A stretch of 64,000 bases of DNA, taken from the IMG/VR virus record IMGVR_UViG_3300029365_000529, positions 14,196-78,195 of that record; one strand, written 5' to 3'. Of this stretch, positions 3,612-48,577 are shown piece by piece; the first letter of the stretch is position 1; each line of letters begins with the position of its first letter. The position numbers and the translations under genes are program-made. This stretch comes from a virus. The notes under the pieces are model-generated. The model worked only from the letters and a program-made list of their open reading frames with translations. It ran no database searches and was not told where the DNA came from.

Positions 3612-3614
3612 CGT

Positions 3615-4082: not shown

Positions 4083-4092
4083 ATAACCAACA

Positions 4093-4133: not shown

Positions 4134-4191
4134 TAATGAAACAATCTACTACCTAATTAACACAACTAATAAACATGAAAAAAAGTAAAAT

Positions 4192-4503: not shown

Positions 4504-4506
4504 AAG

Positions 4507-4947: not shown

Positions 4948-4950
4948 AAG

Positions 4951-5394: not shown

Positions 5395-5834
5395 TTTTTC
5401 TCCTCCTTTCCCTGCTCCTTCATAATCTCAGCAAAAGCCCTAGCCAAGTCTTCTTTATTTTCTAAGAGTATGCTGAAAGAACGTTCCTGCTTCCGTATCT
5501 CAGCCTTCTGCCAGCTTTTCTCCCTTACGCTTACAAATTCACAGAACACGCAATAGCCTGCCCATATCATAGAGAAGACAGGGAAGGGGAGAACCGTACA
5601 GGCTATCAGGTCTATGCAGACCGTCACCATGAAGGGAGAAAAGTATTTCCTCGCCTTGTCGCAAGTCTTCTTGAATCCTGTACTTGTCGTAGCCAGCCCG
5701 TTCTCTTTCGCTTTCTTGATACCGAAGAACAGGTCCACGCCCATAGAAATGATAAGAGCACCCATGCAGATGACAATAACCAATGCCGATCTGTACAGGT
5801 GCTCTTGTAAAAATGTATGTACTATCTCTGCCAT
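5391..5834 (-). CDS. putative holin (three predicted transmembrane helices)
   Basis: 147 aa with three hydrophobic helices and a charged C-terminus. Its stop overlaps the endolysin start in ATGA. Confidence 0.5.
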   Translation of the reverse strand: MAEIVHTFLQEHLYRSALVIVICMGALIISMGVDLFFGIKKAKENGLATTSTGFKKTCDKARKYFSPFMVTVCIDLIACTVLPFPVFSMIWAGYCVFCEFVSVREKSWQKAEIRKQERSFSILLENKEDLARAFAEIMKEQGKEEKK

Positions 5835-29810: not shown

Positions 29811-29850
29811 GAAAGGAGTGAGCCTTGCGCCCACTCCTTTATTTATTTAT
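29811..29850. terminator. bidirectional terminator shared by the lipoprotein operon and the giant gene
   Basis: Stem GGAGTGAGC/GCCCACTCC (one mismatch) with loop CTTGC, A-run upstream and TTTATTTATTTAT downstream. Confidence 0.6.
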
Positions 29851-32800
29851 TCCAATCTATCCAGTTCATCCACCGCATCCATCATAATCCTGTCAATATT
29901 CTGGTTAGCGAAGTTGATGCTCTCGGTATCTGAAGATTTATCTCTGAGTTTCTTCCATCGCTTCATCTGCTTCTCTGCCAGCTCGATTACTCTCACCTTG
30001 GCAGCCTCCTTGGAGTTTTGGAAGTGATAATACTCCCCGATATTCGTGATTCTCTTGTCAATCGGAACGTTCTTCGATTTCAGGCGGTCCACGTTGGCCA
30101 TGGTCTTTTCCATTTCGTCCTTGTAGTTATACCACTTGCTCTTGGTTCTCTGCAAGCTACTCTGCTCACTAGGCGTATAAAGAAGAGAGCGAAGGAAAGG
30201 AATATCCTTGGTTTCCGTGTCGCTTCCATGCTTGATAACACCGATAGCTCGCTCTGTAAAGGTAGCAGCGCCACCACCTATGCCACCGATGTAATGATTC
30301 AGCATACTAGGGTTCGTTACCATATCCAGGAAACTGTTGCCCAGCATATCCTCATTACCCTTGGCTACATCGTTGGTCTGGGCATTCACCCATTTATTCA
30401 CAGCCAGATAACCGTCAGGCACACCCTTGTAGGCTCTTTGCCAAGCAGGGGAATTTTCATTCCAGTCACCACGTCTTTCAATCGGCGCACCCTTCCAGTC
30501 GGTGTTTAACTCCCATTCCACGAAAGGAGATAGGGCAGAAGGAGAGATAGCCTTGATCGTCTCATTCAATGGCTCCTTGCCAGCCGAAGAGTTACCGAGA
30601 TAGTCCATCACCGGCACAAGCTGCGACATACAGCCCACGGCATCCAAGGCAGGATTCTTCTGTCCGCTTACGTTTGGCGAGAAGGTCAATCCAGCCGCCA
30701 AGTCACCCAAACCATAGAAGGCTCTCAACTCAATGGCAAGCGGAATAGTAACAAACTGACCGCCACCCTTGTAGATGCAGAGATTGTTTCTTCTCACGTA
30801 GTCAGGCAACTCGCCGTATGGGTCCTTCACGCCCTTTCTATCCTTCTCATCCTCACTCGCAATCAGCACATTGTTTCCAAGTGCAGCCAGAGCACCTAGG
30901 GCAAAAGGAATGGCAAGCATATTGATAGAAGTACCCACAGGATGATTCTTCAAGTTCTTCACAAGAAGATTTGTACTTTGAATACCGGCATTAAAGAACA
31001 TAGAACAATGTCTCAGATAGCTAGCCGTAAATCCGTAAGCCCATCTTGCAGCCGCCTTGCCGCCAGTCATTTCTCCGTTCTTGAAACTCTTGATGGCATC
31101 ACCGCTTCCATGGCGGTTGAAGTTGGTAGATACCTCCTTTGCATCATAGACCGAACGGATGATAGAACGGTTACTGTCTCGGCTCGCACAATAGGTAGCG
31201 AATCGGGCGATATTCTCAGCCACCTCGTTGATGTTCGCCAGATTTCCGAAGAAGAAGTCACGAAGGGCAGCGCCGCCCTTGTCAATCTTGCTTCTTTCGC
31301 TCTTCACATCTTTCTTGTACTCCTTGGTCCAGTCCTGCATGTTCTTGATCTGAACCCAACCGGTTTCGCCGCCGTTCTCCATGAACTCCTTGAAATATCG
31401 TTGAACCTTGTCAGAAGTATCAAGTGTTCCGTTACGATACTTGGCAAACAAGCCCAAGCCAGTAGTTCCGCTCAAATCCTTGAAGCTGATATTCGATGCA
31501 CCCTTATACAAGCCCAACTGCGCATAGTACTTCGTCCAGAGCGCACCATATCTTGCACCCTCCTTAGAAGTAACGTTGCTCGATGCAAACTCCGCATCAC
31601 GCATGATGTTTCGCATCACGAACTCAGGGTTATAAGATGTACACAACTGCGCCATCATTCTTGATATAGAACTCAATGGTTTCATGATTCCCTTGGCGCC
31701 CGAGTTCTCCAGCAATCCATTCAGAGCTTGCGCCGCTCTAGGATTTCCGTTGATAATAAAGGTATGGGTCCTTCCGGCAATCTTCACATCTACGATATGC
31801 TGCGATTTATTCTCCGCTCTTTGGAACTTATAGCCGATTCTTCCTCTTCGATACACCTTTGTCGCCAACCCCTTTGATTCCAAATCCTTCATTTCCATAT
31901 TGAAGTCTGCTACTATCTGATTTATTTCATCAGCCGTAGCGTCCTCGGGAATGTCTGGGTAACGCTCCACGGTGGTATGAGTGATAGGGTCATCGGCGTA
32001 CCAAACCCTAGTCTCCGTCACAAGATTATTGTTCGAGTTGTTTCTTACGAATCTTGCAAATGCCTGACGGATAGCGTTCATACCGCCATTCTTGATAGCT
32101 CTGTTACCCATCGCACCAATCTGCGCCAGTACGTTTGTTTCACTCAGATACTTGTGTCCTCTCGCTCTCATAATCGTGCTTCCGATGTAGCTCTTCGGGT
32201 CGCCCTGCTCAGTAATGTAGCCATAAGTATCTTCTGCAGTAGCCTCATCATACTTTCTCAAAGGCACATACCAGTTGAACATATCAGATACATGACCGTA
32301 AAGCTCTCTACTGATAAGACCATTCTTATAGTCAGTATCAATAGAATACTGGGTGGCAGCCTTCACCTTATCCCAATAGTCCTTAACAGACCCCTTCTTG
32401 ATACTCTCCATCTTTGCTTCTGAATCCATCACGCTAGCGATAGCCTCAGCATCATCGTAAGGATCAGAAGACTTAGCCACTTCCTGTATAGCGTGAATAC
32501 CCGAATAGTCATGTTCGCCAGCATCAAACTTATTGTCACTATCCACGTAGGTACGGATGAAATCGTCCATGCGCTCATAATAAGTCTTCAGGTCGATGTC
32601 TCCACGCTCCAATTTCTCGTCAAGGGTAGCTTTCTCGTTGTTCCAATCGAACTCCACAGTATCAGCTAGCTTCTTTGTCTTCTCGTTCATGCGCATATAC
32701 TTCAAGGCATCACGCACATACAAGATACGGTTTCGCTCCAAGCCGTGCTTGGTAATCATGTAGAGATTGAAGTTTCTGATCTTCTCATCATCCTTCTTGC

Positions 32801-35800
32801 CATCGAAAGCATCCAGTACGCCGGCCATGGCCTTATCAAGAGGCTTCATCACGTTGCGCTCAAATATCTGAGCCGCATCACTCATCGCACCCTGCATGGT
32901 GTTCTGCAGTATATAAGGATTCTCAGAAGAAGCAATATCTTCAATCTTCTTGTCAGGCACAATCGCATTCATCAACTTCTTCAACGAAAGCATATTGTCC
33001 ATATAGCTCTCGGTGAACATATAGCCATGTTCATCAAGCGAGCGGTGGTATCTGTCAAGTGCCGTGCCGGCAGATGGGGTAGTGCGGAAGTGAATCTCAC
33101 CATCTGTAGCCTCATTCCACTCAGCCTTGGTAAGATTATCCATACTTCTAACCTTAGCGTCATTTCCGTAGAACATACCATCATGAGCCACGACAGCAGG
33201 CATACGCTCATGGTCGAGACGGTATTTCACCGCCTCGACTCTCATTTTCCAATAAGGATCATTTGGATTCTTCTGCAAGTTCTTGCTCAACCAGAGCAGA
33301 TACTTCACATCTTTAGTATTAGGAGCAATACGATAACCGATTTCGTGAAGGAAATCAGATACCTTATTTTTGATACCATTCCAGAAGCCCGGTTCACCCT
33401 TGCCATCTTCGGCGAGTCGGGCGATACCTTCCTCAATGGCATCATAGATATTCAGAGGATTGAACTTTCTCTCCTCATCCACCAGCTTCTTTAAAGCCGC
33501 ATTCTCAGGCTTATCCAAGTCATACCATACTTCACGAAGGAACTTATCGAATCGTTCATCACCAAACAACTCTCTCATTCCCTTGTGTCCAACTACCTCA
33601 TGCCAGATAGTCTTCTCGGCAGTATATCTGTCGTGGATATTAGGCATATAAAGATGCACCTCGCCAGTCTTTTCATCATACCAGCCGGTAATCTTTCTGC
33701 CATCCTCAATAGCAGCCTTAGCTGCCTTGTTGGTGATTTCATCAACTGATGAAACCATCTTCACCTTGCCACCAGTCTTCTGAGCCACATTTTCGATATG
33801 GCTCTCAACCGATGAAGCAGGGTAGTTGCTTTCTCCATTATCCGTGCGGAATTTAGTGCCTCCGTCCTTGCCCCATTCCTTGTAGGCATCCTTTGTCATT
33901 TTTACGTTGACGAACTTAGCCTGAGGGAACTCCTGTTCCAGTTCAGCCATCTGCTTCAAGAACTTCTCCTTTGTTTCAGGGTTCTGTCTGCCTTGCTCTA
34001 CGGTAGTGATAGGCACACCAAGTTTTACAAGCTCTCTCAACTGGCTAGGGGTAACTACGTTCCAAGGGATAGCCAATCCGGTTCCTCTCAGTTGGTCGGC
34101 GATTTTCTCAGCAACCTCCTCGTCAGGCAATATTCTTACTGCCTTTCTCCATCTAGAGAGCATCACGCTTCTCTGTCTGTCCTTTGGCAGAAGGCTGTTT
34201 ACTGTTCCAGAAGTCCAAGGCACCAAGCCCACAGAGTTCTTTGCGCCCTCGGCGTGATAGCCGCTAGTCTTCTCGCTCTCAGGAATCTCCCATTCAACAA
34301 CCTTGATGTTGCCTCTAGCGTAAGCACCAGAGAACTGGTCGTTCATCACCGAAGTGGAAGTGTGCATGTAAGGGTTATAAGCCGCTGGCACTGGTCCTTC
34401 ACCTGCCCCAGGGTTCTTGTCGGTCTTTACAAGTTGGAACTTACCGTTCTTCACAAGGTCAGGTCGCTCGTCTGCGCCCATCCAAGCACCAATCTCGGTA
34501 GCATCGGTACGCTTTCCGTCAATGATAGCAGCCATAGGGGAGTACAACTTTCCATCCACCTCCTGCATTCCGCTATACATTCTGAAAGTCTTCTCCTTGT
34601 TGAGGCGGTCCAGCTCGTCCTTATCTGTGACCTTATAGGAGAATCCGTCCTGTTCAATCTCATTCATGGAAATATCATCAATGGTTTCATTGAAATCATC
34701 CATGATGTCATTGATAGCCTTATCCATCTTATCCTTCTCAGAAACCTCAAAGAGTTTCTTCCAAGCATCCTTCAAACGTTGCAGGATAGAACGGTCGCCC
34801 TTTCTTGCAAACTCATGTGCTGCATTCACAACTTTATCCCAGATAGACAAGTCCATCGCCTTTCTCTGTCTAGAATCTGCCATCTGAGCAGTCAACTCGT
34901 AAGCATCAGTCAGACCGTAAGGCTCTTCTTTGAAACGTTCCTTATCGCCCTTTACTCTGTCATAGATTTCGAGGATAGTCTTTACGCCCTCTATCTGCTT
35001 AGGAGTCAGCATGCCCTCAGCCTTGCCTTTCTTAACGAGATTGATAGCACCCATTGTTGCCTCATGAATCATTTCATGCAGCATGATGGTAGGGGCAGCA
35101 TAGTCTGGAGCTTTGGTCTTCGTTATACCATCAATGTATAAATCAATGTTTCTGCGAGTGTCCGCTTCTCCCGCCCTCTTGTTTGGATCCTCTGGGCTTA
35201 CTTTGATTCTTACGCCGAGGCGCTTACTTATATTGAGTGCTTTTTCGAAGAGTTCAGCCTTTTCTTTATCTCTATTTGTTTCTTTAAAAATTCGTTCAAC
35301 GTCTCCAAGTGTGAACGTTCCTCCTGGCTGCAATCCCCAAGTCTCTCTGAGATTCTTTGCTCTAGCGTCTCTATAGGCAAGTTCTCTGTCAGCGACGGCG
35401 AGAATGGTCTTATAATATTGCAGTAGATAAGAGCCTTTATTTCCCTTACCGTCATTCTTACCACCAAGATGTCCTCCGGTATGCTGTCCTGATAACTTTT
35501 CAACTTTTCGTTCATAATCATTCTTGTAATATTCAATAACGCTTCTACCAAGATCAGAAAACTCATCCAGAGCAGATTCAAGATTATCAGCAAACAAAGA
35601 TTTATCTCTGTCTTCTGTATGCTCTTCGATGTCCTTAATGGTAGAATCAAACTTCTTTTCAATCTGCGAAGATACATTTTTATCTACATCTTCCGGAATG
35701 ATTCTACTATTCTTAACATCTTTTGTATCTGTTTTAGAATACTGCAAGCCTCGGTCCTCACGGAAGTGGGTGCGTTCATCCTCAGAAGTATTGCGCTCCT

Positions 35801-38800
35801 CCTGTACCTTTACGCCCATCTTAGACAGGCGGTCCAGTACAGGCTTCAACTGATCAGGCTTAAACTCAGCAAGCATATTGTTGCCTCTTGTTTCGAAGTT
35901 ATTGCCATTAACCAGTTTCAGCAAATTTTCATCCATGAAGTACTTGCCGCCCTTCGCCTTGCTCTTCGGCACACGAAGCTCGTAGAAGTTGCCACGATTG
36001 TTGTCTATGCGCTTCACCTTCACTTCACCATCTGATGAAGTAACCTCGTCAATACCACCATGCCATGATGAAAGCTCAAACTTATCTACCACGCTGTTGA
36101 TAGGCGCATCCGTAGTCAAGCCCTTAGGGTCGAATCTATCTGGCATCAAGATACCAGTCTTCACCTCGCCAGTATCTGTAGTATATTTCACCAGCTGACC
36201 GCCCAAGCCCTGATCCTTGCTGTCAACCAAAGCCTGCATCAGATTACCAGTTACAATATAGCCATTCTTGCGGCTCTCATTGCTAGTCAGTCTATCCCAG
36301 TTATCAAAGTTTTGGTTCAATACTCTGAGATGGCTGTCTCCCATACCGGCAGCCTGCTTAGTCATGTTGTCGATGGCACTGATAACATCAGCCTTGTTGT
36401 CACCTGCGCCCACCTTACCCGCGATAGGGAATGTAATCTTTCTTCTGCCATCCAAGGTAGCGAAGGAAACCGAAGAGGCGTTAGGCGAGTAGTTATCAGT
36501 AATCTTGATGTCAATAAGTCTACCATAACTGTTACCGAATCCGCTCAACTCGTTAGGATTGTTCATATCCGTAGGCAGAACGAAAGTCTGGTTTGTATCG
36601 AAGGTATCAAGCACACGCTCAAACATTTCAGCCTTGGCTTTCAGGTTCTTCACCACATCGTTCAGCTTATCTTTCTCCTGCTTGTAGATGTTGTCATACT
36701 GATAGCCAGCCATCTTCTCGATCTGCTCATCGCTCATGCCCGAATCCTTCTGACCCTTCTTGCCATCCTTGATATACTTCTCCTTAGCCTTGGTTGCAGC
36801 CTTCACGGCACGCTCCTCATACTTCTGAGTCTCGTCCGCAATCTTCTGGTCGAAGTACTCCTTCACGGCAGCCTTCTTATCGGTCTTGTATTCATCCCAA
36901 GTCTTGCCGCCAGTCAAACCATCCTGCGAAGCCTTCACCTCAGAAGCCTTCATTGGCTTCTTCAAGATGGCCATGTTCACCTTTTCTATATAGGTGTTGT
37001 CTGCAAAGGCGTTATCGCCGCCCGGCTCTGCACCCTGTTTCCAAACTTCCTTGTGGAGAGTCTTAGCCTTCAAAGGCAACTCAGTAATCTCAAGGTCATT
37101 CTCACCCATTTCGTTGAGTCGCTGAATCTCGTTGGCATAAAGCTCGCCAATCTCCTGCAACATCTTCTCCTGCTCAGAAACTCTCAGCAGAGCCATACGC
37201 CCAAGCAACTTGCTTGCATCGGCACCAGCTTCACCTTCACCAACACCGCCACCGCTAGCAACAAGAGTTTGGGGGTCGATTCTAGACAAATCATCGCCAT
37301 TACTCTTTTCCCATCCGAATGGATCAGCCATGCGTGCATAAAGGTCAAGATGCTCTGCCATATACTCACGAACTACCTTATCACCATATTTATTGGTAAT
37401 ATCGGCAACTTCCATTTCGTTGAACTTACTCTTCTGAGAAGAAGTAGTGTTGGCATCAAGTGACTTCAACTTAGCCTTAAACATCATCAGCAGTCGCTGC
37501 TCGGCAGGGATAAGGGAAACCACATATTCGTATGCACCTCTAGCCACCTGACCGGTTCGGTCGATTCGTCCACGCATCTGAACTTCATCGTTTACGTCAA
37601 GTTGCTGCTGCGCCACGATCATCACACGCTTCTTCTGGTCCTTATACTTGCTCGAAGCATGAAGGGAAATACCGGTTGCTGCACTCTTGTTGAGAATAAG
37701 CGCATCAATCTTACCATCGTTAAAGTCGCGCGCGAGTTTCTTCTTGTCTGTATCTGCACGCTTTACCTTGGTAACAGTTCCGTTGTCGTTATAAACAAAC
37801 TCGGTCTGTCTACCGGTCAGCTCGCCAACCTTATAGCCAGCCTTCTGCAGCTCGTTCTTGATTACATCAATAGGAGAGAGGGAAAGACCGGTACTTGTCT
37901 GCTCAATCTTCTTTTCCAGTTCGTGATAAGCATCAACTGCCTCATCGCCCAAATCCGAAAGCTTGATGTAACCGCTTTCGCTATTATCCTTTGCATCCTT
38001 CTGGGTATAGCGAAGTGTACCTTCAAGACCCTTCTTCAAAGATGTACCCAAGTCTGGTGCGTCCATTTCCTCGCCAAGCGCAAGGTTGCCAGTCTGCGAT
38101 TCGTTGGTATTGTTCAACGCAATCACAGGCTTCATGCCCTGCTTCAAATAGTCGATGGCACGTTCTGCAGCAGACTTTGCTTTTAGGGAAAGAAGAACCT
38201 GCTGAACGGCATTGAATGCCTTGCTGGCAAATGGCTGATTTTTGATACCCAGGGCAGCCGTTCCCTTCTTGATTCCCATGGTAGACTGAATGGCAGCCAA
38301 CTCGTCATTACGCTCATCCACGTAACTTGAAACATATTTCTTTTGGAAATTGATAATATCATTAAACAATCCGATGATGCTATCATACTGTTCTCGCTGC
38401 TCCTGCACTCGCTCTGGATCATCAATAGCCTTCCAGTCGATGGTTACGCCAGTCATATCTCGCTCACGGCGAATCATCTGACCGCATTGCGTCAAGGTCT
38501 GGCTCATAATCTCCTGCAAGGTTGCACCACCACGCTTCACCGCATCAATCAAATCGGATGATTTCATACCGCCCTCGTTCATGGCAGTACGCAAAGCGTA
38601 GATAGGCATGTTGTCTGGTCTCTTGGCAAAGGTAGCCGAGAAGAAGGTAACATTCTTTGCCTTCTGAATAATGTGTTGGAAATAGTTGCCCTGTCCGCTA
38701 TTGCCACCAGCCGTGTGGCTTTCGTCAAGGATAAGATAGGCGTTACCCATCAGTTTTTCAATAGCATCACGTCTTTTCTGTCCGCTCAGAGCAGCAGCAC

Positions 38801-41800
38801 CGAAAGATTTACCCTTCGCAAGCTTTCTCTCCTTGCGGTTGCCATCCTCGTCAAACTCATACACACCATTGCTTACTTGGCTGTAAGTAGTCAATACATA
38901 GTCATATTCGTCTGGCAGCTTTCCATTCTTTTCGATGTAATCAAGCACTCGCTTCACCTCGCTCTTCGATGGCAAAGCAAATACTACTTTTCCGTCTGAG
39001 TCGGTAATGGCAGCTTCCTTGGCGCTACCGAATACAAATGGTCTTAGGTCTGGGCTGCCAATATCCACCAAGTCACGGTAAACATCGCTCAGCAATCCTG
39101 CTGTCTTGGTGAAATATACAGGAACCTGACCCTGCTTCTTGGCGTATCTGATAAGTGAAGCAGCCTGTCTTCCCTTACCGATACCTGTCATATCTCCAAT
39201 GATGAAGGCATTGCCCTTCTTTGCCTGCTGCAAGGCAAGGGCTACAGAGTCAACCTGCTCTGCAGCAAGATGAGAATACAAATCATCCTTATCATTATAG
39301 CCCAGCTCGTCAACAAGGAACTGGTCGGCATCGCCCAACTTTTCAAGATTCTTGTTTACTGCCTCCTGCTGATCGGCAGGCATCACGGCTTTCAGAGTGA
39401 ATGGATTTCCACTCTTAGGTGTATAGGTAACTTTCTCGGTGCTTAATCCACGTACGGATTTGTCCACCCGCTGTAATTGTCCCCGTGGTCCGCTTCCGCT
39501 CCCGGCGTTGGAAGGCTCATCAGTACTTGGCTGAGCGTCATTCCGTCCAGCTCCTCCTGATCCATTTCCTCGCTGCTCATTGGTTCCAGTGGTTGGTTCT
39601 TTGCTTGGAGAAGGCTCTGTCCCTGTTCCGTCTGCTCTACTATCTCCATTAGGAAGTCCTCCATCTTGTCTTGGCTCGGTTCCTCGTTGATTTTCCAAGT
39701 CATCATGGGTTCCTGATACGGAAGTGGAGTCAAATAGGTCAGACTCTCGCTCACCATCTGGTTTGCTTCCTCCTCGTTCTCCTGCTCGTACTCTCTCTTT
39801 AGGAGTACCAGCAGCGCCTTGTTTATCAAGTTCTGGTTGAGCACTTCTTGTTTCTCCTCCGATGGAAGAATCCATCCGTTCACCTCGTAGTATATCATCT
39901 TCAATTCGTTTATAAAGTTCGTCATAATCTTTCACGGTCTCTGCTCTAGCCTTATCCTTTACTGGTGGAAAGGCATTTTCATTCAAGCGTCTTCCGTTTA
40001 TTAATATAATACGTGTAGGGTAGCTGGTTCCCTGCTTTGCATAGAGACTGCCATCCACATTAATCACGTCCTCCACATTATAGTGGCTATAGAGATAACC
40101 AAGGAAAGCCTTATCTTTCGGATTCAGACTTCCGTTCTTGGCGTATTCCGTCTTGCCGCCGACGATAATGGCTGCACGGCCATCGTCTTTCATGCTCTCC
40201 AAGGCATTGATAGCCATCTGTCCTTCCAAAGAAGAAATCTTATAGCCGTCATACTCCTTAGGGGTAGCACTACCGAATGGTGGGTTTGTTACCACCACGT
40301 CAACGTCCTTGTCTGCAAAAGGCTGAGTTCCGTCCTGACTGGTCACGTTCTTGAAGCCCTGTCTTCTCAGGTTCGCCAATCGCTGGGCATCAATATCGTT
40401 CACATGCACCTTATCCATTGGCAAGCCGATGGTAAGCATACCGTTGCCGGCACTAGGCTCCAGAGTACTCTCAATCACCTTGCCGTTACCCTTCACATAC
40501 ATATCCGCAAGGAAAGCGTAAGGGGCAGGGGTAGAGTACTGCTGCTTCATCACTCGCTCAGAATCACGCTGGTTGAGGCTAGGCTGATTCTCATAGAGTG
40601 TCTTGATGCGTTCAAACTTCACGGCATCGTTGGTTGATTCAGAAGAAGCGATACCTCTTGCTCGCTTAACAATAGCAGTCTCAGCAAGCTCCTGCAAGTC
40701 CGTGTCCTTAATATCCTTCAAGCCAACTCTTTCAGCGATTTGTCTCAGTTCAACTATTCCGTTAAACTTATGCTTGAAACCCAACTTTATGTTCACGGTA
40801 TCAATAAACTTCTTCTCAGCCATCTTTCTCTCCTCGGCAGTCTTTGAGTCACCCACCAGATTCTCCTGATGCTTAGGCGAAGTTTTCTCGTAGAAGTCAG
40901 CCCAATCCTTCAAACTCATGCGCTGCTCACCATCGCGATAGCGGATATTCATCATCTGCTCATAGATAGCATCCACGTCTTCCTTCTTAAAGAGCTTGGC
41001 AGCAGGAGCAAACTCCTTGCGCATTTCCTTCACCACGTCTTCAAGATTGTGCATACCTCTCTTGATTCTCAGATAAGCATTTTCGGCCATGGCGCTCACC
41101 AGCTTAGGCAATACTTCCAACTGTCTAGAGTTAAGACCAATAAACGAAGCGGATATTTCGTCCTTACCGGCATTCTTGAGCATATCCCAAAGGTCATTAA
41201 CCTTCTTGTTGGAAGCTGCTACTGCTGCATCGTCAGCCTTCTGCTGAGGCTTCTTCTCTGTCTCAGCCTTAGTTTTCTTCTCCTTACCAAAAGCTTCTGC
41301 TGCATTCTTGATTCCTTCCATAGGGTCAGCAGATGGTTCCGTTTTAGGAGTCTCAACCTTTGGTTCAGTCTTCTGTCCTCTGGTCTTGGCAAAGATACTT
41401 TCATAGATAGCACGATGCAAATCATCTGTCACCTCACCGTTCAGATAATCAAGAGCCATATCCTTGGATAAATCATCCACGTCAGCCTTCATGATCTCCT
41501 CCTCAGTCAGAGGATGCTCCTTCTTGAATTCCTTGGCAGCCGCCGCAATCGGGTCAAAAGTAGGGTCTGGCTTCTCTTCCTTAGGAAGGAGTGGGAGAGG
41601 TTTTTCTTTTACCTTACCGTCAACATATTCGACAACCTCATTCAGGTCGCCAAACTTCTTGCCATCATACTCATAGTATGAGCCGGTATATTCTCCCTTA
41701 TCGTTTGGCTCATCAACCTTGATAACCTCCTTGTCGCCATCAATAAGAATCTTCTGCCTTGTGATAGGACCGTTCTCAGATGGAGTTTCGGTTTCCTCGT

Positions 41801-44800
41801 CAGTAACCTTAATACGACTTTCAAGTTCTTTGTTTACTAAGTCGTCTGGTTCTTCTACTCTTGGTCGTTCTGGTTCTGTTCCTGCTTCTGCTGGTTCATT
41901 TCCTCCTGATGCTTCTTGTTGAGGTTCTTCATTGCCTGAAACATCATTGCCTCCTTCAATTTCTGAATGTCCTGTTCCATAATCTTGCCATTTTTTAAAG
42001 TTCAAATACTCATTAATTAACTCTTCCTTGGTAGGAGCTGCCTCAAACATATTGCCCTCGCCAGTATTTCTAGCCTTAGCGATGCGGTTGTATTCGTCAA
42101 GCAAATCTCTGAAATCAGAAACCTTGCCCTCCAAGGCTAAAGCCATCATCTGAGAGATAGAAGAGTAACGCTTAGCCGCATCCTCACCGAACATGTCTGG
42201 TGTTCTCAGCAGCGTATCAACCTTATTGCCACCCTGTCTTGCCTCATAGAGCAACTGTATAGCCTGATCAATCTCATCACGAAGAGAGAACTCACCCAGC
42301 TTCATGTTGTCCATTACCGAGCGGATAGCGTTGATAGCCTTATTCTTCACCGTAGAGTCGATGCCCAACATTCTGATAGTCTCTGGCTTGAAGATTGAAC
42401 CCAACAGAAGGTTCTTCACATACTCCCTGCCTTGTGCAGAAAGCCGTTCAGGACTATCCATCATCTGTGCCACCTCGTTCTGTCCGATGATGCCTTTATC
42501 TACTAACGTCTTCACCAAGTCATTTATTGCCTTGGAATTGTTAAAGAAAGCATCAAGAGAGCCATTTCCCTCAATCTCTGCAACAATCGCACCTACTTCG
42601 TCAGAAGTCAAGGTCTTAGCCTTGGCAACCGCCTGTTCGGTATTGCTCTGTGTCTTCTTCTCGTTTCTGTTGAATTTGGAGAAGGTAGCCGTATCGTATG
42701 GCAGTCTCTCATCCGTCACCAATACAAGACGTGGATGCTCGATTCCACTCTGCTCAATCTGCTCTCTGGTAAAGCCGAAGTTCTCGGCATTCTCCAAAAG
42801 GTCGTTGATGTATTCTGCGTCTGTGCCTTCCTTTGCAGCCTTCTGTCCTGCCATGGTTCTACCGTTACCATCATAAACGATACCCTCGTCAGATACCACT
42901 GGCACCTGCTCGATAGCCATACCGTTATACTTCCTAGCAATCTGGTCCGTATTCTGCTGAGCCGCCTTGTCGTGCTCATAGTCACGGTCATTCACGGTTC
43001 TGCCCTCAGCATCGGTAGGGAATCCCTCAGATTTCTTATAGCCATTGTTCACATCGTGAGAAGGAGTAAGACTTTCTGCCGGCACAATCTCATAGTGTCC
43101 CTTAATCTTTGTCTCTCCGTCAGGCAGCATTCTTGTACGCTTGTTACCCACCAGTCTTGGTGCATTCACAAACTTCTGTGCAGCCACGCTACCAGCTTCA
43201 TGTGCGCCCTCAGTCTGTTCTGTATTACCCACAGTCTCCGCAACCTTCTTGGCAGTCATAGCCTTCTTGATATTCTGAGCGTGGTCCAGCTGCTTCTTGG
43301 CAGCTTCAATAGTCTGATTCTTCAAAGTCTCCTGCTCCATGATGTCGTTAGGTTCGGCGGTATAGTCCACCTTCATCTTCTCGGCATCCTTCAAAGCCTT
43401 CTCTGCTTTCTGAATCTGTCCGTCCACTACCTTCTCGGCATTATCCCCGAAATCCTCAGTAAGAATCTCCGCACTCTGCTCAGGAGTCATTTTCTCATAG
43501 TCAGGCGTAGGTCTTCCCTTGCTGTCCGTAGCCATAGGAACATCTGAACCATCGGCAAACTTACGGGTAGGCTGAGGCTGCTCTTGTGGTACAAATTTCT
43601 CGGTTTTGGTATTATTTTCGCCCGATGCGGTATTATTTTCGCCCGATGCGGTATTATTTTCCTCATTTGTGGTATTATCTTGTGGTGCTTCCTGCTCCTT
43701 TGGCTGAGGCTTGGCAGCATCCTGCATAGCTTGCTCCTGTGCTGCCTGATTGTATGGCTCAGAGTTCTTCATCTGTAATCTCTGACGATATTCTGCAGCA
43801 AACTGGTCGATAGGCTGATTCTGAAACAGAGTAACCTCATCTGCCTTCACATAAACCATTTCCCTGGTATTAGGGTCGAAGCAGACAAGCATATCGCCGC
43901 TACCTTCCTTGGCTCTACCTGTAGTCTGGTCAAAGGCAACATCACCCGAACCAACAAGAAGTGTTCTTCCGTTGCTGTCTTGCACGTACAAAGCTTGCTC
44001 GCCATTCATCGGCTGGCCATTCAATGTTCCGTGATAGCTCCAATCAGAAATAAAGCTCTTCACATTTTCCTCTATGACATCAGCAGTAGCTTCCTGCATA
44101 CCCTGCACTCTAGCGTTCGCATTAATATATTGGGCAAGTGGGGTCAACTCTTCTTGGGTCAATCCATTCTGAATGAGTGCATCGTAAATCTGTGCCGGTG
44201 TCAAGCCCTGCTGGTGCAATTTCTCAAATGTTTGCTTGAACACATCGTTGCTATCCATTGCTTCATCAACCGCCTGTTCTGCATTCCGAAGGTTGCGCAA
44301 CTCATCAACTACCACGCCGCTATCCGGGTTGTCCGTTCCCAGACTATGCTCCTCGGCAACCGTCTTGCCTTGGCTGGCAGACTGGTCTGCGTGTGGTCTC
44401 CAGCTAGGAAAAAGCTCATCTTCGAGTGCTCTCTTCACATGATAGAAGATTCTGTTCTCCTCATCGGTACGCTTCATTGGGTCCTTGCGCATGATTTTGT
44501 CAATATCAATAACAATGCTTCCTTCTTTACCAAGAATTTCTTTGATAGAAGCCATGAAGTTATTAGTATAGCCTCTGCTTTCTGATCTGAGGTAGCCAAG
44601 CAAACCGTTTTTGTCCGCATACTTCTCCCAGTCAAGATAGAGCGCACTCTTCTGGTTGCGCAACTCATTAATCAGTCGGGCATTATTCGGGTCTGTAATA
44701 TCCTTATTCTCGTCATATCCGTTTTCTTTAAGAAATCTAAACGCTAGATTAGTGACAGTTCCATCATCATCTAAGAACTGCATATCCTTCATTCTTGCAT

Positions 44801-47150
44801 AGCCCATCAGCGACATCATATCGTCATTATCACGATAAAGCTTCTGCTTGTAAAGAATAGCTCTGCGCTCATCGGCATTCTTATAAGAGGTACGTGTAAG
44901 CAGTGTTCCGTTCTTGGTGTATTCCAGAATCTGCTTGTTTTTCACGTCGTTCACGCTTCGGTAGCTTTTGCCTCTTGTCGTGTTAAACAGTCCCATGGCC
45001 GCATTCACCTTCTCTTTGGTGCTCTGAGAAACGTCTGGGTCGTTCATAAAATCCGTGTAAGCAGTCTTATACTTCGGGTCTCTTGGGGCTGTCTTCGATG
45101 CACGGTCCATCTTTGTAAAGGCATCCATCAGATTCTTGCCCGATGCAGAAGAAATCAGCTCGTTCTTCTCATCAGGAGTCAGACGAATATCCACGGCGAT
45201 AGGGGAACCGTTGTCATTCTTGCCAATCACGAAATTACCACCGCTGTTATGGGTAAGATGATGCAGGATATTGCCCATCTTCACGAAGTTGCTAGGTTCG
45301 CCAGCCTTGAAAGCACCCACCATCACCACGTCTTCCAGCCAAGTGCCGAAGGAAATATCCTTGTCGCCAGTCACGTTGTCGGCAACCATCATGGTTCCAG
45401 CCTCAACACCGAGACCTGCGGCAGTAGCACCAAACTTCTGTGCGCCATGAAGCAATCGCTCTCCAGTGCTCTTTTCCATGCCGGTGATTCCGAACTTGGA
45501 AACCCAAGGAGACATCACCGCACCAGATACACCGAACATAGCACCAGTTACAGCACCGTGTTCTGCACCTTTCAGACCAGCCTCACCGATAGCCTGCAAA
45601 GAAGTATCATCGCCAGTAGAAGCCTGATTCAAAGCAGCACTCGCACCCGAATATCCTGCAAGATTCAGCGAACTTGTAGCCGTTCTAGTGCCCAATCCCG
45701 ACATGATCTTCTGTGCCGTTGTCATATTGGCAACCTTGAAAGCCATCTGCTGTGCTGTAAGTCTCTGTGCTGCCTTCATCACGCCAGCCTTCACCAGTCC
45801 GTTTGTCAGAACTCGGGTTCCTGCATTCACGGCAGCACTCGCACCTGCACCGATTACGGCAAGCGGACCAGAATCTGCAGCCATGTTTACGGCAGTAGAT
45901 GCGAATCTCGTACCGATGCCCGAGCGATAGGTTTCATCCTTGTGACCGGCCACCTTCTGAATCTCTGCATCACCGTCTGCGATAGCGATACCTTCCTGCA
46001 ATCTCTGTCTGGTATCTCTAGACATCACAGATGGAGCCACCACCATACCGATAATAGAGTTGCTGAGGTTCTTGGCAATGTAATCAAGCGCACCATGAGG
46101 CATGATTTCCTCCTGATTTCGCATCGTCAGAGCCTTCTGAGCATAGTTCATAATCTCTGGAGTAACGTATTTGTCCACGTATTCCTCCATACTCATGTTC
46201 AGCTTCTCTGCGCTCTCAGCAATATGGCGCTGCATACCCTTCTGCGAATAAATCTCATTGATTTTGCTGCTGAGATTGTTCATCAGAACGTTCTGACGGT
46301 TCACCTGTTCCTGCGTCTGAGCATCACGGAAAGCCTGTTCCTTTACCGACTGAGGCGCATAGATGCCGCCCATCTTGTCAAGGTTCTGCTGATACTGCTG
46401 ACGTGTTAATTCCTGCGCCTCATTTATGGAAGAATCAACCAGACTGAGAAGATCATTACCCAAAATACCTTCGGTCTGTCCGTCATTTCTTACGAACTTG
46501 TTGCCATCAACCTCATACTGGGCAAGATTCCTTGCATCGTCCTCTCTCTGCTGCTTACCTCTAGCCCTGCGAGCTTCAGGAGTAGAAAGCTGCTGCATCG
46601 TCTCGTTGAAGTTCTTGGCAGTAGGGGTTATTCTGCTTCTGCTGATAGGGGTTGCTCTCTGCTGTTCCTGACGTGCAGACTGCTCTTGTGCTCTTTGCAT
46701 GCGCGCGCGCATGTTGCTAGCCTGAGCCTGCTGCATCGGGTTCATCTGGTCGTTGCGCATGTGCATCAACTGCCAGTTCTTCATATAGTCTGTACCAGAA
46801 GCAGTAGCCGTACTAGGCTGCTGAGGTCTCCGAGGCTGCTGCCTCTGCTGCTTATACTGAGCTGCCACCTTCTGTGCCCTCTGCGAAGTAGTCATTGGCT
46901 TCTGCTGCGCTACCGGCTTCTGCTGAGGCTTCGGATTTACAGCATGGAGTCCAAGCCGCTGCGCAAACTCCTCATAGGAATTACTGGAAACAGCACCATC
47001 AGCATGAAGCGCATCATAGAGCTGCTTTCTGTTATGATAGCCCTGCTTGCCAGGCGCATACACGAACTTTCTGAAATGTTCTCTAGTTCCCGATACTGCG
47101 CCATCTGCTTTCAAGGCGTTATAAAGTTGGTCAAATTTATCTCCAGCCAT
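29847..47150 (-). CDS. giant polyvalent virion protein (5,767 aa): ParB-like + N6A methyltransferase + SNF2-family helicase + two HExxH zincin modules + hydrophobic segments
   Basis: Uninterrupted 17.3-kb ORF. Motifs confirmed by reverse-translating the + strand: DGNGR (ParB-like, about 42870), LEPSAGNG...VVTNPPFGSA (MTase motifs I and IV, NPPF at 40275-40286), GIGKGRQ (Walker A, about 39170), LILDESH (38715-38726), FFSATF (motif III), QMRGRIDRTGQ (motif VI, about 37570), IMLHEMIHEA (35062-35079), TIWHEVVGHKG (33584-33601). Confidence 0.85.
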   Translation of the reverse strand: MAGDKFDQLYNALKADGAVSGTREHFRKFVYAPGKQGYHNRKQLYDALHADGAVSSNSYEEFAQRLGLHAVNPKPQQKPVAQQKPMTTSQRAQKVAAQYKQQRQQPRRPQQPSTATASGTDYMKNWQLMHMRNDQMNPMQQAQASNMRARMQRAQEQSARQEQQRATPISRSRITPTAKNFNETMQQLSTPEARRARGKQQREDDARNLAQYEVDGNKFVRNDGQTEGILGNDLLSLVDSSINEAQELTRQQYQQNLDKMGGIYAPQSVKEQAFRDAQTQEQVNRQNVLMNNLSSKINEIYSQKGMQRHIAESAEKLNMSMEEYVDKYVTPEIMNYAQKALTMRNQEEIMPHGALDYIAKNLSNSIIGMVVAPSVMSRDTRQRLQEGIAIADGDAEIQKVAGHKDETYRSGIGTRFASTAVNMAADSGPLAVIGAGASAAVNAGTRVLTNGLVKAGVMKAAQRLTAQQMAFKVANMTTAQKIMSGLGTRTATSSLNLAGYSGASAALNQASTGDDTSLQAIGEAGLKGAEHGAVTGAMFGVSGAVMSPWVSKFGITGMEKSTGERLLHGAQKFGATAAGLGVEAGTMMVADNVTGDKDISFGTWLEDVVMVGAFKAGEPSNFVKMGNILHHLTHNSGGNFVIGKNDNGSPIAVDIRLTPDEKNELISSASGKNLMDAFTKMDRASKTAPRDPKYKTAYTDFMNDPDVSQSTKEKVNAAMGLFNTTRGKSYRSVNDVKNKQILEYTKNGTLLTRTSYKNADERRAILYKQKLYRDNDDMMSLMGYARMKDMQFLDDDGTVTNLAFRFLKENGYDENKDITDPNNARLINELRNQKSALYLDWEKYADKNGLLGYLRSESRGYTNNFMASIKEILGKEGSIVIDIDKIMRKDPMKRTDEENRIFYHVKRALEDELFPSWRPHADQSASQGKTVAEEHSLGTDNPDSGVVVDELRNLRNAEQAVDEAMDSNDVFKQTFEKLHQQGLTPAQIYDALIQNGLTQEELTPLAQYINANARVQGMQEATADVIEENVKSFISDWSYHGTLNGQPMNGEQALYVQDSNGRTLLVGSGDVAFDQTTGRAKEGSGDMLVCFDPNTREMVYVKADEVTLFQNQPIDQFAAEYRQRLQMKNSEPYNQAAQEQAMQDAAKPQPKEQEAPQDNTTNEENNTASGENNTASGENNTKTEKFVPQEQPQPTRKFADGSDVPMATDSKGRPTPDYEKMTPEQSAEILTEDFGDNAEKVVDGQIQKAEKALKDAEKMKVDYTAEPNDIMEQETLKNQTIEAAKKQLDHAQNIKKAMTAKKVAETVGNTEQTEGAHEAGSVAAQKFVNAPRLVGNKRTRMLPDGETKIKGHYEIVPAESLTPSHDVNNGYKKSEGFPTDAEGRTVNDRDYEHDKAAQQNTDQIARKYNGMAIEQVPVVSDEGIVYDGNGRTMAGQKAAKEGTDAEYINDLLENAENFGFTREQIEQSGIEHPRLVLVTDERLPYDTATFSKFNRNEKKTQSNTEQAVAKAKTLTSDEVGAIVAEIEGNGSLDAFFNNSKAINDLVKTLVDKGIIGQNEVAQMMDSPERLSAQGREYVKNLLLGSIFKPETIRMLGIDSTVKNKAINAIRSVMDNMKLGEFSLRDEIDQAIQLLYEARQGGNKVDTLLRTPDMFGEDAAKRYSSISQMMALALEGKVSDFRDLLDEYNRIAKARNTGEGNMFEAAPTKEELINEYLNFKKWQDYGTGHSEIEGGNDVSGNEEPQQEASGGNEPAEAGTEPERPRVEEPDDLVNKELESRIKVTDEETETPSENGPITRQKILIDGDKEVIKVDEPNDKGEYTGSYYEYDGKKFGDLNEVVEYVDGKVKEKPLPLLPKEEKPDPTFDPIAAAAKEFKKEHPLTEEEIMKADVDDLSKDMALDYLNGEVTDDLHRAIYESIFAKTRGQKTEPKVETPKTEPSADPMEGIKNAAEAFGKEKKTKAETEKKPQQKADDAAVAASNKKVNDLWDMLKNAGKDEISASFIGLNSRQLEVLPKLVSAMAENAYLRIKRGMHNLEDVVKEMRKEFAPAAKLFKKEDVDAIYEQMMNIRYRDGEQRMSLKDWADFYEKTSPKHQENLVGDSKTAEERKMAEKKFIDTVNIKLGFKHKFNGIVELRQIAERVGLKDIKDTDLQELAETAIVKRARGIASSESTNDAVKFERIKTLYENQPSLNQRDSERVMKQQYSTPAPYAFLADMYVKGNGKVIESTLEPSAGNGMLTIGLPMDKVHVNDIDAQRLANLRRQGFKNVTSQDGTQPFADKDVDVVVTNPPFGSATPKEYDGYKISSLEGQMAINALESMKDDGRAAIIVGGKTEYAKNGSLNPKDKAFLGYLYSHYNVEDVINVDGSLYAKQGTSYPTRIILINGRRLNENAFPPVKDKARAETVKDYDELYKRIEDDILRGERMDSSIGGETRSAQPELDKQGAAGTPKERVRAGERGGSKPDGERESDLFDSTSVSGTHDDLENQRGTEPRQDGGLPNGDSRADGTGTEPSPSKEPTTGTNEQRGNGSGGAGRNDAQPSTDEPSNAGSGSGPRGQLQRVDKSVRGLSTEKVTYTPKSGNPFTLKAVMPADQQEAVNKNLEKLGDADQFLVDELGYNDKDDLYSHLAAEQVDSVALALQQAKKGNAFIIGDMTGIGKGRQAASLIRYAKKQGQVPVYFTKTAGLLSDVYRDLVDIGSPDLRPFVFGSAKEAAITDSDGKVVFALPSKSEVKRVLDYIEKNGKLPDEYDYVLTTYSQVSNGVYEFDEDGNRKERKLAKGKSFGAAALSGQKRRDAIEKLMGNAYLILDESHTAGGNSGQGNYFQHIIQKAKNVTFFSATFAKRPDNMPIYALRTAMNEGGMKSSDLIDAVKRGGATLQEIMSQTLTQCGQMIRRERDMTGVTIDWKAIDDPERVQEQREQYDSIIGLFNDIINFQKKYVSSYVDERNDELAAIQSTMGIKKGTAALGIKNQPFASKAFNAVQQVLLSLKAKSAAERAIDYLKQGMKPVIALNNTNESQTGNLALGEEMDAPDLGTSLKKGLEGTLRYTQKDAKDNSESGYIKLSDLGDEAVDAYHELEKKIEQTSTGLSLSPIDVIKNELQKAGYKVGELTGRQTEFVYNDNGTVTKVKRADTDKKKLARDFNDGKIDALILNKSAATGISLHASSKYKDQKKRVMIVAQQQLDVNDEVQMRGRIDRTGQVARGAYEYVVSLIPAEQRLLMMFKAKLKSLDANTTSSQKSKFNEMEVADITNKYGDKVVREYMAEHLDLYARMADPFGWEKSNGDDLSRIDPQTLVASGGGVGEGEAGADASKLLGRMALLRVSEQEKMLQEIGELYANEIQRLNEMGENDLEITELPLKAKTLHKEVWKQGAEPGGDNAFADNTYIEKVNMAILKKPMKASEVKASQDGLTGGKTWDEYKTDKKAAVKEYFDQKIADETQKYEERAVKAATKAKEKYIKDGKKGQKDSGMSDEQIEKMAGYQYDNIYKQEKDKLNDVVKNLKAKAEMFERVLDTFDTNQTFVLPTDMNNPNELSGFGNSYGRLIDIKITDNYSPNASSVSFATLDGRRKITFPIAGKVGAGDNKADVISAIDNMTKQAAGMGDSHLRVLNQNFDNWDRLTSNESRKNGYIVTGNLMQALVDSKDQGLGGQLVKYTTDTGEVKTGILMPDRFDPKGLTTDAPINSVVDKFELSSWHGGIDEVTSSDGEVKVKRIDNNRGNFYELRVPKSKAKGGKYFMDENLLKLVNGNNFETRGNNMLAEFKPDQLKPVLDRLSKMGVKVQEERNTSEDERTHFREDRGLQYSKTDTKDVKNSRIIPEDVDKNVSSQIEKKFDSTIKDIEEHTEDRDKSLFADNLESALDEFSDLGRSVIEYYKNDYERKVEKLSGQHTGGHLGGKNDGKGNKGSYLLQYYKTILAVADRELAYRDARAKNLRETWGLQPGGTFTLGDVERIFKETNRDKEKAELFEKALNISKRLGVRIKVSPEDPNKRAGEADTRRNIDLYIDGITKTKAPDYAAPTIMLHEMIHEATMGAINLVKKGKAEGMLTPKQIEGVKTILEIYDRVKGDKERFKEEPYGLTDAYELTAQMADSRQRKAMDLSIWDKVVNAAHEFARKGDRSILQRLKDAWKKLFEVSEKDKMDKAINDIMDDFNETIDDISMNEIEQDGFSYKVTDKDELDRLNKEKTFRMYSGMQEVDGKLYSPMAAIIDGKRTDATEIGAWMGADERPDLVKNGKFQLVKTDKNPGAGEGPVPAAYNPYMHTSTSVMNDQFSGAYARGNIKVVEWEIPESEKTSGYHAEGAKNSVGLVPWTSGTVNSLLPKDRQRSVMLSRWRKAVRILPDEEVAEKIADQLRGTGLAIPWNVVTPSQLRELVKLGVPITTVEQGRQNPETKEKFLKQMAELEQEFPQAKFVNVKMTKDAYKEWGKDGGTKFRTDNGESNYPASSVESHIENVAQKTGGKVKMVSSVDEITNKAAKAAIEDGRKITGWYDEKTGEVHLYMPNIHDRYTAEKTIWHEVVGHKGMRELFGDERFDKFLREVWYDLDKPENAALKKLVDEERKFNPLNIYDAIEEGIARLAEDGKGEPGFWNGIKNKVSDFLHEIGYRIAPNTKDVKYLLWLSKNLQKNPNDPYWKMRVEAVKYRLDHERMPAVVAHDGMFYGNDAKVRSMDNLTKAEWNEATDGEIHFRTTPSAGTALDRYHRSLDEHGYMFTESYMDNMLSLKKLMNAIVPDKKIEDIASSENPYILQNTMQGAMSDAAQIFERNVMKPLDKAMAGVLDAFDGKKDDEKIRNFNLYMITKHGLERNRILYVRDALKYMRMNEKTKKLADTVEFDWNNEKATLDEKLERGDIDLKTYYERMDDFIRTYVDSDNKFDAGEHDYSGIHAIQEVAKSSDPYDDAEAIASVMDSEAKMESIKKGSVKDYWDKVKAATQYSIDTDYKNGLISRELYGHVSDMFNWYVPLRKYDEATAEDTYGYITEQGDPKSYIGSTIMRARGHKYLSETNVLAQIGAMGNRAIKNGGMNAIRQAFARFVRNNSNNNLVTETRVWYADDPITHTTVERYPDIPEDATADEINQIVADFNMEMKDLESKGLATKVYRRGRIGYKFQRAENKSQHIVDVKIAGRTHTFIINGNPRAAQALNGLLENSGAKGIMKPLSSISRMMAQLCTSYNPEFVMRNIMRDAEFASSNVTSKEGARYGALWTKYYAQLGLYKGASNISFKDLSGTTGLGLFAKYRNGTLDTSDKVQRYFKEFMENGGETGWVQIKNMQDWTKEYKKDVKSERSKIDKGGAALRDFFFGNLANINEVAENIARFATYCASRDSNRSIIRSVYDAKEVSTNFNRHGSGDAIKSFKNGEMTGGKAAARWAYGFTASYLRHCSMFFNAGIQSTNLLVKNLKNHPVGTSINMLAIPFALGALAALGNNVLIASEDEKDRKGVKDPYGELPDYVRRNNLCIYKGGGQFVTIPLAIELRAFYGLGDLAAGLTFSPNVSGQKNPALDAVGCMSQLVPVMDYLGNSSAGKEPLNETIKAISPSALSPFVEWELNTDWKGAPIERRGDWNENSPAWQRAYKGVPDGYLAVNKWVNAQTNDVAKGNEDMLGNSFLDMVTNPSMLNHYIGGIGGGAATFTERAIGVIKHGSDTETKDIPFLRSLLYTPSEQSSLQRTKSKWYNYKDEMEKTMANVDRLKSKNVPIDKRITNIGEYYHFQNSKEAAKVRVIELAEKQMKRWKKLRDKSSDTESINFANQNIDRIMMDAVDELDRLE
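43600..43680 (-). repeat. 21-bp tandem repeat (3-4 copies) inside the giant gene
   Basis: + strand GGTATTATTTTCGCCCGATGC twice, then two degenerate copies; encodes NNTASGE-NNTASGE-NNTKTE. Confidence 0.7.
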
Positions 47151-47167
47151 ATATTATATATTAATGT

Positions 47168-48577
47168 TTATAAACCAAGTTTCTTTGTATTCTTATATCC
47201 GTTCTTCGACTTGCCGGCAGATTTAGCTGCTCTCTTTCTGGCTTCTTCCCTCTGTCTTCGCAGCGCTCCTGCTCTCTGTGCAACAGAAGAACCGCTTTGT
47301 CTGTTGGTGGTTCTTGTAGTAGAGCCATCCCTGTTGAACACTTCCTTGCTGCTTGAAGTAGATGAATTGCCAGAAGTATTACCATTGTAGTAAGCTTCAT
47401 TTGCTTCATACATGGTCTTGTTGGATGCGTAATGTGGTTTTCCTTCTGCATCCCAAGTTACGTATTTGGCAGAAGAGCCTCCACCGCCGCCTGATCGTCC
47501 ACGTCCGCTTCCTTTATGGGTAGCATTATACTGTGAAATGCTCAATCTTCTGTTGGTCTGCTCGTCCTTCGCCTTATCACGCTGCTGCTTATATTCGAAG
47601 TCTCGCTGGTCCTTCTGCTGCTTATACTGTGCTGCTGCAGCATCCTTGCCCTGACGATAGTCGAACTTATCCCTGGCAAGCTGATTATTCTGGTTCCTCA
47701 TGCCAAGAAGCAGTTCCCTGTAGGCATTCTGTGCATTGGCAGCACGTTCCTTCAAGCTGAGATTAGCCTGCTTGTAAGCCGCATCTGCATCAAGTGCAGC
47801 TTCCTTCTGTCTCTCAGCCTTGCGGTTCTGATAGACCTGTTCCATCATGGCAGTAGGGTCATTGAACTGCTGCAAAGGAGCGCCCTTGGAAGTATTCACG
47901 ATATTTCCCATGTGACGGATGGCATCGGCAAAGGCAGCGATATTCTCACGGTTGGTAGTGATTCGGCGGTCATACTCTTCAGGAGTCTCACCCTCACGCA
48001 TTCCCGGTCTGCTCTTCGGCATAATCTTGCCGAGCCAACTGAAAAAGCCGCCATCCCTCTGCTTTGGGTCTGCCTCAAACTCAGGAACCTGCTGTTCCTG
48101 TGGCATCTGAAAGCCGCTCAGAGCAGTAGAAAGCGTATCATAGCGAGGTGTTCCGTCAGCATTCCAACCGGTAGAAGGCTGTGGCATTCCTTCAAAATTG
48201 CTCTGAGGCTGAGGGGTATTCTCTGCTGCATCGCCCATGTAAGGAGTCTGTACTGGTCCCAAGGCAGGGTTAGCATTACCGTTGCCCTGCGGAACGAACT
48301 CTTCCTGCTTAGGCATCTGGGTGAAGTCTGTAATAGGTGCTGCGCCAGTCTGAACAGGCTGAGCCTCAAACTTACCGGTAGCACCGCCCCCATTGCCGAA
48401 GAAGTTAACGCCAGCACCGCCATTTACCCCCGCGGACCCTCCGTTACCTCCATTCATCACCTGATCATAATCGGGATATTTCGCCCTCATCAGGTCATGT
48501 ACAGCCTCAGGATAGCCGCCGATAGTTACCGGCTTCTTCCTAGGCTGCTGCGTATTCTGATTATTGTTTACTACCAT
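47168..48577 (-). CDS. low-complexity Gln/Gly/Asn-rich protein with central coiled coil (469 aa), probable internal virion/ejection protein
   Basis: ORF immediately upstream of the giant gene in the same operon; GG-rich N- and C-termini. Confidence 0.55.
   Translation of the reverse strand: MVVNNNQNTQQPRKKPVTIGGYPEAVHDLMRAKYPDYDQVMNGGNGGSAGVNGGAGVNFFGNGGGATGKFEAQPVQTGAAPITDFTQMPKQEEFVPQGNGNANPALGPVQTPYMGDAAENTPQPQSNFEGMPQPSTGWNADGTPRYDTLSTALSGFQMPQEQQVPEFEADPKQRDGGFFSWLGKIMPKSRPGMREGETPEEYDRRITTNRENIAAFADAIRHMGNIVNTSKGAPLQQFNDPTAMMEQVYQNRKAERQKEAALDADAAYKQANLSLKERAANAQNAYRELLLGMRNQNNQLARDKFDYRQGKDAAAAQYKQQKDQRDFEYKQQRDKAKDEQTNRRLSISQYNATHKGSGRGRSGGGGGSSAKYVTWDAEGKPHYASNKTMYEANEAYYNGNTSGNSSTSSSKEVFNRDGSTTRTTNRQSGSSVAQRAGALRRQREEARKRAAKSAGKSKNGYKNTKKLGL

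Follow-up and report, generated by a model that had tools for sequence, protein, structure and literature searches.

Two probable zincin-like metallopeptidase domains, of HExxH and HExxxH type, in the giant DarB-like protein of a gut phage

The DNA analysed here, referred to as the window, is a stretch of 64,000 nucleotides from a virus (IMG/VR record IMGVR_UViG_3300029365_000529, positions 14,196 to 78,195 of that record) belonging to a gut phage that encodes a DarB-like polyvalent protein. In the C-terminal part of this giant protein we identified two domains, named D1 and D2, which very probably belong to the zincin-like domain class and which carry an HExxH and an HExxxH motif, respectively. 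The features on which the analysis is based are the following:

29847-47150, minus strand: giant open reading frame (ORF) of 5,767 amino acids, open without interruption
34605-35378, minus strand: D1, zincin-like metallopeptidase domain of HExxH type, amino acids 3925-4182, delimited with the hidden Markov model (HMM) of its alignment
35064-35078, minus strand: HEMIH motif of D1, amino acids 4025-4029, carrying the catalytic Glu and the pair of His predicted to bind metal
34896-34898, minus strand: E4085 of the Glu helix (YGLxxxYE), predicted to be the third metal ligand in D1, present in 26 of 26 copies; helix 154-162 of the model
33951-34604, minus strand: Dmid, very conserved uncharacterised module, amino acids about 4183-4400, flanked by D1 and D2 and separate from the peptidase domains
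33204-33830, minus strand: D2, zincin-like metallopeptidase domain of HExxxH type, amino acids 4441-4649, delimited with the HMM of its alignment
33585-33602, minus strand: HEVVGH, the HExxxH active-site motif of D2, amino acids 4517-4522
33429-33434, minus strand: E4573-E4574, an (E/D)E pair carried by the D2 Glu helix, with E4574 as the predicted third ligand; helix 139-153 of the model

An earlier note on this DNA had described two HExxH motifs about 490 residues apart in the C-terminal third of the giant protein, both in alpha-helical contexts. The first peptide, PTIMLHEMIHEATMG, was confirmed in the sequence and contains a true HExxH (HEMIH), the sole one in the whole giant protein. The second peptide, EKTIWHEVVGHKGMRELFG, is also present but reads HExxxH, with four residues separating the His pair (H-E-V-V-G-H); here the earlier reading was one residue off. 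The rest of that description agreed with our data, since the spacing measured 492 residues, the motifs were located at 70% and 78% of the length of the giant protein, and AlphaFold put the first in helix 89-111 of the D1 model and the second in helix 79-94 of the D2 model. From the composition of the giant protein, 0.077 HExxH are expected by chance per protein, and the expectation for HExxxH is equal, so the motifs alone prove little and the test must be conservation together with fold. That short motifs should arise by accident in a protein of this length is an explanation to which this expectation, not negligible over many giant proteins, would lend some weight; it is already refuted by the conservation of the catalytic residues in the homologues of D1 and D2, and we regard its probability as practically nil.

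To collect homologues, 1.84 billion representative proteins were searched exhaustively (E<=0.001), the query being the 760 residues from amino acid 3901 to 4660, comprising D1, Dmid and D2. This search yielded 1,928 proteins whose matched ranges fell into the three modules D1, Dmid and D2, combined variously in other giant proteins of 2,000-7,000 amino acids. All relatives of D1 and D2 were located in giant phage or plasmid proteins, some of them annotated as LPD-containing or as 'DarB-like antirestriction'. As revealed by tblastn, D1 occurs in proteins of 2,044 amino acids from Helicobacter pullorum prophages, and D2 in the 3,633-amino acid gp68 of Bacteroides phage BF1-TP2, in the 'DarB-like antirestriction' protein of phage BKO1-TP3 and in proteins with LPD domains that are encoded on Bacteroidales plasmids. 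When the giant protein was scanned with HMMs derived from both alignments, no further copies of D1 or D2 were detected.

Residues H4025, E4026, H4029, E4085, A4091 and R4096 of D1 were invariant in 26 of 26 copies, with identities down to 22%. Among D2 homologues (mean identity of about 27% in a 30-sequence set), H4517, E4518 and H4522 were kept in 103-105 of 106 copies (E4518 in 105/106), and every copy retaining these residues showed the HExxxH spacing. Both G4530 and E4574 were present in 106/106 D2 copies and E4581 in 101/106, and position 4573 was occupied by E or D in 101/106. The AlphaFold2 models, computed on the alignments of D1 (predicted local distance difference test score, pLDDT, of 73; predicted template modelling score, pTM, of 0.72) and D2 (pLDDT of 82, pTM of 0.68), both presented an N-terminal helix, three strands, a long helix bearing the motif and extra helices followed by the helix of the invariant Glu. 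Comparison of the D1 and D2 alignments with hhalign gave a probability of 96.3% and an E value of 1.9e-9, aligning HE with HE, E4085 with E4574, and H4029 with H4522, with G4521 as a one-residue insertion in D2 relative to D1. Therefore, D1 and D2 are diverged copies of one domain type. Searches of D2 against predicted viral structures matched pieces of giant phage proteins, annotated for example as 'large polyvalent protein associated domain' or 'MuF C-terminal domain'.

Two side observations concern the distribution of these domains. The relative P0006 spans the end of one D1 copy and the beginning of another, indicating tandem D1 in some relatives, and in the relative P0016 a D2 domain shares its fragment with the precomputed Pfam match PF18762, which we take to be the polyvalent-protein kinase, D2 being freely combined with other effector domains.

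According to the earlier note, a third zinc ligand was to be sought 20-30 residues downstream of each motif. This did not hold, and no invariant E, H or D was found in that range in either domain. Instead, an invariant Glu lies in a later helix, 56 residues (E4085 in D1) or 52 residues (E4574 in D2) past the second His. Two His, the general-base Glu and another Glu further on thus give each domain the signature of a gluzincin. The proposal of two metallopeptidase modules was thus borne out by conservation and fold as far as the zincin-like class is concerned, while the pattern of the second motif and the distance of the ligand had to be revised.

Comparison with curated families gave weak signals. 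Direct scans of the motif regions against Pfam, PHROG and NCBIfam returned nothing above cut-off, and the only signal was SprT-like with an E value of 0.11 (E 0.11-0.15 and 12-13 bits on the window copy of D1, against a cut-off of 25.6). SprT-like also appeared below threshold in 14 of 21 D1 members (best member 1.9e-4), and a few D2 members had sub-threshold matches to DUF6782 or Zincin_1. The HMM comparison suggested in the earlier note provided zincin-type signals, none of them above the Pfam cut-off. Likewise, for the minimal zincins (Zincin_1, PDB 3E11 and 2EJQ; the minigluzincins projannalysin, proabylysin and selecase; SprT/Wss1/Spartan) sequence matches stayed below curated cut-offs. 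Membership in SprT/Wss1/Spartan was rejected, given the SprT-like signal below cut-off and the absence from D1 (HEMIHEATMGA) and D2 (HEVVGHKGMRE) of a His six residues past the motif, that is of the third His of SprT/Wss1 (HExxHxxxxxH). Metzincins (HExxHxxGxxH plus Met-turn) were discarded as well, there being neither a motif extension nor a third His, and the Gly of D1 standing 5 residues past the second His. No match was obtained in a single-sequence search of PDB sequences or by megablast against phage genomes.

The domains resemble most a class described by Iyer, Burroughs, Anand, de Souza and Aravind (2017, J Bacteriol; PMC5512222), who defined polyvalent proteins and reported the zincin-like metallopeptidase (MPTase) as their commonest domain. 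MPTase domains occur in one to five copies per polyvalent protein and form 12 clades unrelated to classical zincin families, one set of them having HEXXXH with a predicted bend of the helix (PMC5512222). As in that class, D1 and D2 are part of a giant multi-enzyme phage protein with a methylase-helicase dyad, a DdrB-type ParB and an LPD, unrelated enzymatic domains being combined in one large phage protein (Iyer et al., 2017). They also share the MPTase core, in which a three-stranded sheet is accompanied by the active-site helix and, beyond a variable insert, by a second C-terminal helix that bears a Glu (PMC5512222): the HExxH of D1 and the HExxxH of D2 are on the first conserved C-terminal helix, and the conserved Glu of each, the predicted ligand (E4085, E4574), is on the second. 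The presence of several copies per protein and of the HEXXXH variant are further likenesses (PMC5512222), which place D1 and D2 at the level of the class, not of a clade.

ArdC of plasmid R388 (PDB 6SNA) is the one structure of the class with bound metal, held by H201, H205 and E229. Its E228/E229 pair, of which E229 binds the metal, is analogous to E4573-E4574 of D2. ArdC has an HExxH with the Glu ligand 24 residues past the second His, in contrast to 56 in D1 and 52 in D2, and it carries the single-stranded DNA-binding domain ArdC-N, for which the giant protein had no Pfam match. Sequence similarity between ArdC and D1 or D2 was not detectable. Membership in the ArdC family was rejected, as the order of ArdC-N followed by a metalloprotease domain was not found.

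Phage P1 offers another comparison. The giant protein is like DarB in having a methylase and superfamily 2 (SF2) helicase pair, and like DdrB in having a ParB domain. In P1 DdrB the C-terminal domain is a zincin, and the protein undergoes processing prior to packaging (PMC5512222). However, DarB and DdrB are separate and much smaller proteins in P1, and within the phage collection neither D1 nor D2 had a direct sequence match to P1.

The D1 profile also led to proteins of the ejection apparatus. Against PDB sequences it matched PhiM1 gp48 (8VB2; E 1.1e-8, residues 380-509), the 'internal virion protein' 9sfn_G (E 2.5e-7) and 'gp10' 23sg_S (E 1.7e-4), and all three alignments covered the HExxH and the Glu helix, with E4085 aligned to the conserved Glu of PhiM1 gp48 as it is to E4574 of D2. 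PhiM1 gp48 is a tetrameric ejection protein located inside the capsid above the portal and expelled at infection; the authors of 8VB2 described Asp268-Asp528 as endolysin/exotransglycosidase-like and mentioned no peptidase motif. Our match suggests that residues of about 380-509 are a putative zincin-like domain, and that this endolysin-like segment with HExxH plus Glu could be re-read as a zincin. In the comparison with ejection proteins of the T7 gp16 type, only this zincin-like segment of gp48 (380-509) matched D1; the rest of PhiM1 gp48 appears unrelated, with hub and hoop domains there and DNA-acting enzymes in the giant protein. On the PhiM1 match rests the idea that at least D1 is part of an ejection apparatus in the cell envelope, where it would cut peptide stems of peptidoglycan or envelope proteins, or would only build a channel. 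We consider this improbable, as the fold matches are to zincin-type peptidases and not to muramidases, D2 had no match to ejection proteins of the PhiM1 gp48 type, and the neighbouring domains act on DNA, pointing to a cytoplasmic site.

The explanation that we favour, and that seems to us rather probable as a whole, is that D1 and D2 are gluzincin-type copies of one domain, each building a metal site, which serve the processing of the giant protein itself. From the fold and the invariant residues, the two His on the active-site helix, together with the Glu on the later helix, would hold a metal ion in each domain, and the Glu of the motif would activate a water molecule so that a peptide bond is cut. 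The chain of 5,767 residues might in this way be divided into separate working modules, either during packaging or after delivery. Since the conservation of the general-base Glu is as strict as that of the ligands, we consider both domains to be gluzincins competent for catalysis. They are situated at module borders, with the methylase-helicase part on one side and the C-terminal LPD38 part on the other, and they flank Dmid. Self-processing of the giant chain as their main role is a tentative assignment, slightly short of an even chance.

Several observations weigh against this explanation. For neither clade is any catalysis or cleavage product known, and such domains are present in the N4 virion RNA polymerase, ArdC and TraC1, which are nevertheless transferred unprocessed (Iyer et al., 2017; PMC5512222). 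The ArdC metal-site mutant E229A kept its antirestriction activity, and no substrate of ArdC was found. Packaging and injection of the giant protein would follow from homology only, and the Pfam and PHROG scans of neighbouring ORFs aimed at packaging partners of the MuF/DarA type were uninformative. The geometry of the predicted metal site is most at issue for the i/i+5 His spacing of D2. D1 and D2 have no match above threshold to any curated family. Pfam MPTase-PolyVal, presumably PF18818, had no match in the window protein (E<=10) or in 21 D1 and 30 D2 homologues (E<=1); therefore, D1 and D2 are outside that Pfam model.

Some of the same observations bear on a non-cutting role, in which the domains would bind metal with a structural or encapsidation-only function, as suggested for the zincin region of the N4 virion RNA polymerase. 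That polymerase is packaged unprocessed and needs its zincin-holding region for encapsidation (PMC5512222), and ArdC E229A is functional. Nevertheless, the general-base Glu, invariant in D1 (E4026, 26/26) and kept in 105/106 copies of D2 (E4518), is not needed for a metal-binding scaffold alone, which makes this role quite improbable in our judgement.

The main rival of self-processing is an attack on the host, in which D1 and D2 would act as effectors that cleave restriction enzymes or other defence factors after delivery. The earlier note had proposed both roles, and they are those published by Iyer et al. (2017; PMC5512222), namely that the polyprotein processes itself, by analogy with P1 DdrB and its processing, or that the domains attack proteins of the host. 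The strict conservation of the catalytic residues fits an attack on the host, and so does the antirestriction-type protein in which the domains reside (a DarB-like methylase-helicase, with one relative annotated as 'DarB-like antirestriction'); moreover, zincin domains are effectors in polymorphic toxins. However, none of the polyvalent-type zincin domains has a known substrate, HhaI was not degraded by ArdC, whose metal-site mutant is still antirestriction-active, and the sequence indicates no target. The sequence does not separate cleavage of host proteins from self-processing; we regard the former as unlikely.

Among the proteins of the representative search, Dmid was more abundant than either D1 or D2. 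Its invariant residues include P4205, M4206, E4228, P4260, N4270, F4273 and R4279, with the pattern AYNPYxH...NDQF..A..R, and a D2-type HExxxH domain was found within 150 residues past Dmid in 40 of 112 cases of a biased sample. Because of this extreme conservation and the lack of any match in Pfam or among PDB sequences, Dmid may be an uncharacterised enzyme, its invariant residues seemingly forming a set such as enzymes have. The possibility that it is an ADP-ribosyltransferase of the R-S-E type ('FRMY', 'STS', 'EWE') was rejected, since the Arg is not conserved, the other motifs are only partly so, and no ADP-ribosyltransferase family matched. A doubtful but conceivable extension of self-processing is that D1-Dmid-D2 forms a self-excising cassette, from which both zincins would release Dmid as an effector of a new kind in the infected cell, the HExxxH domain being its dedicated releasing protease.

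The domain kind to which D1 and D2 belong was already described in 2017, and the finding is sound but ordinary, with a value mainly for annotation and little for discovery. What it adds are two abundant zincin-like clades in giant phage proteins of gut Bacteroidota that escape annotation with Pfam, NCBIfam and PHROG, one of which, the HExxxH clade of D2, has to date no experimental structure and no demonstrated activity. In the literature we found nothing on HExxH in internal virion proteins, nor on polyvalent or DarB proteins of Bacteroides phages. If self-processing is true, the domains would be a switch that turns an injected 640-kDa chain into several enzymes of antirestriction and takeover.

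The giant ORF had Pfam matches to ddrB-ParB (amino acids ~1347-1472), to a methyltransferase that is adenine-methyltransferase-like (~2234-2336), to AAA_34 and Helicase_C_4 (Strawberry-notch, SF2 helicase; ~2628-3356) and to LPD38 (~5443-5652). The combination of ddrB-ParB, adenine methylase, Strawberry-notch helicase and LPD38 in one ORF identifies it as a DarB-like polyvalent phage protein, which by analogy with its homologues probably travels in the virion and enters the cell along with the DNA. The window further encodes a portal, a terminase and a tail fibre. The closest relatives of the giant-protein stretch, with 94% amino acid identity, are on metagenome-assembled contigs of Segatella copri, and this similarity points to Segatella or Prevotella as the probable host.

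One of these 94% relatives (L003) matches in the range 3001-5280 and is on contig JAJWOH010000037.1 of a Segatella copri metagenome-assembled genome. Two others (L006 and L007) are also Segatella-binned and share 77-78% identity, while another 94% match is binned as 'Bacilli bacterium', likely by a binning error. The word-indexed homologue search gave close, fragmentary relatives only. Many relatives (P0003, P0006, P0014, P0019-P0023) are short fragments of giant genes with out-of-frame tails, on contigs of up to 64.8 kb, which points to frameshifts or broken gene calls in the assemblies.

Directly upstream of the giant gene, and also on the minus strand, there are two ORFs whose ends overlap or abut, 47168-48577 (469 amino acids) and 48571-49629 (352 amino acids), neither of them with a Pfam or PHROG match. 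P1 needs partner proteins for the packaging of DarB, and the two ORFs could be packaging partners of the giant protein. Residues 1 to 1,300 of the giant protein had no family match. They include a long hydrophobic stretch rich in Gly and Ala (amino acids ~411-620; window ~45291-45920, minus strand), which may insert into membranes, and a tandem repeat of two NTASGEN units (amino acids 1166-1180; window 43611-43655, minus strand) in a low-complexity linker.
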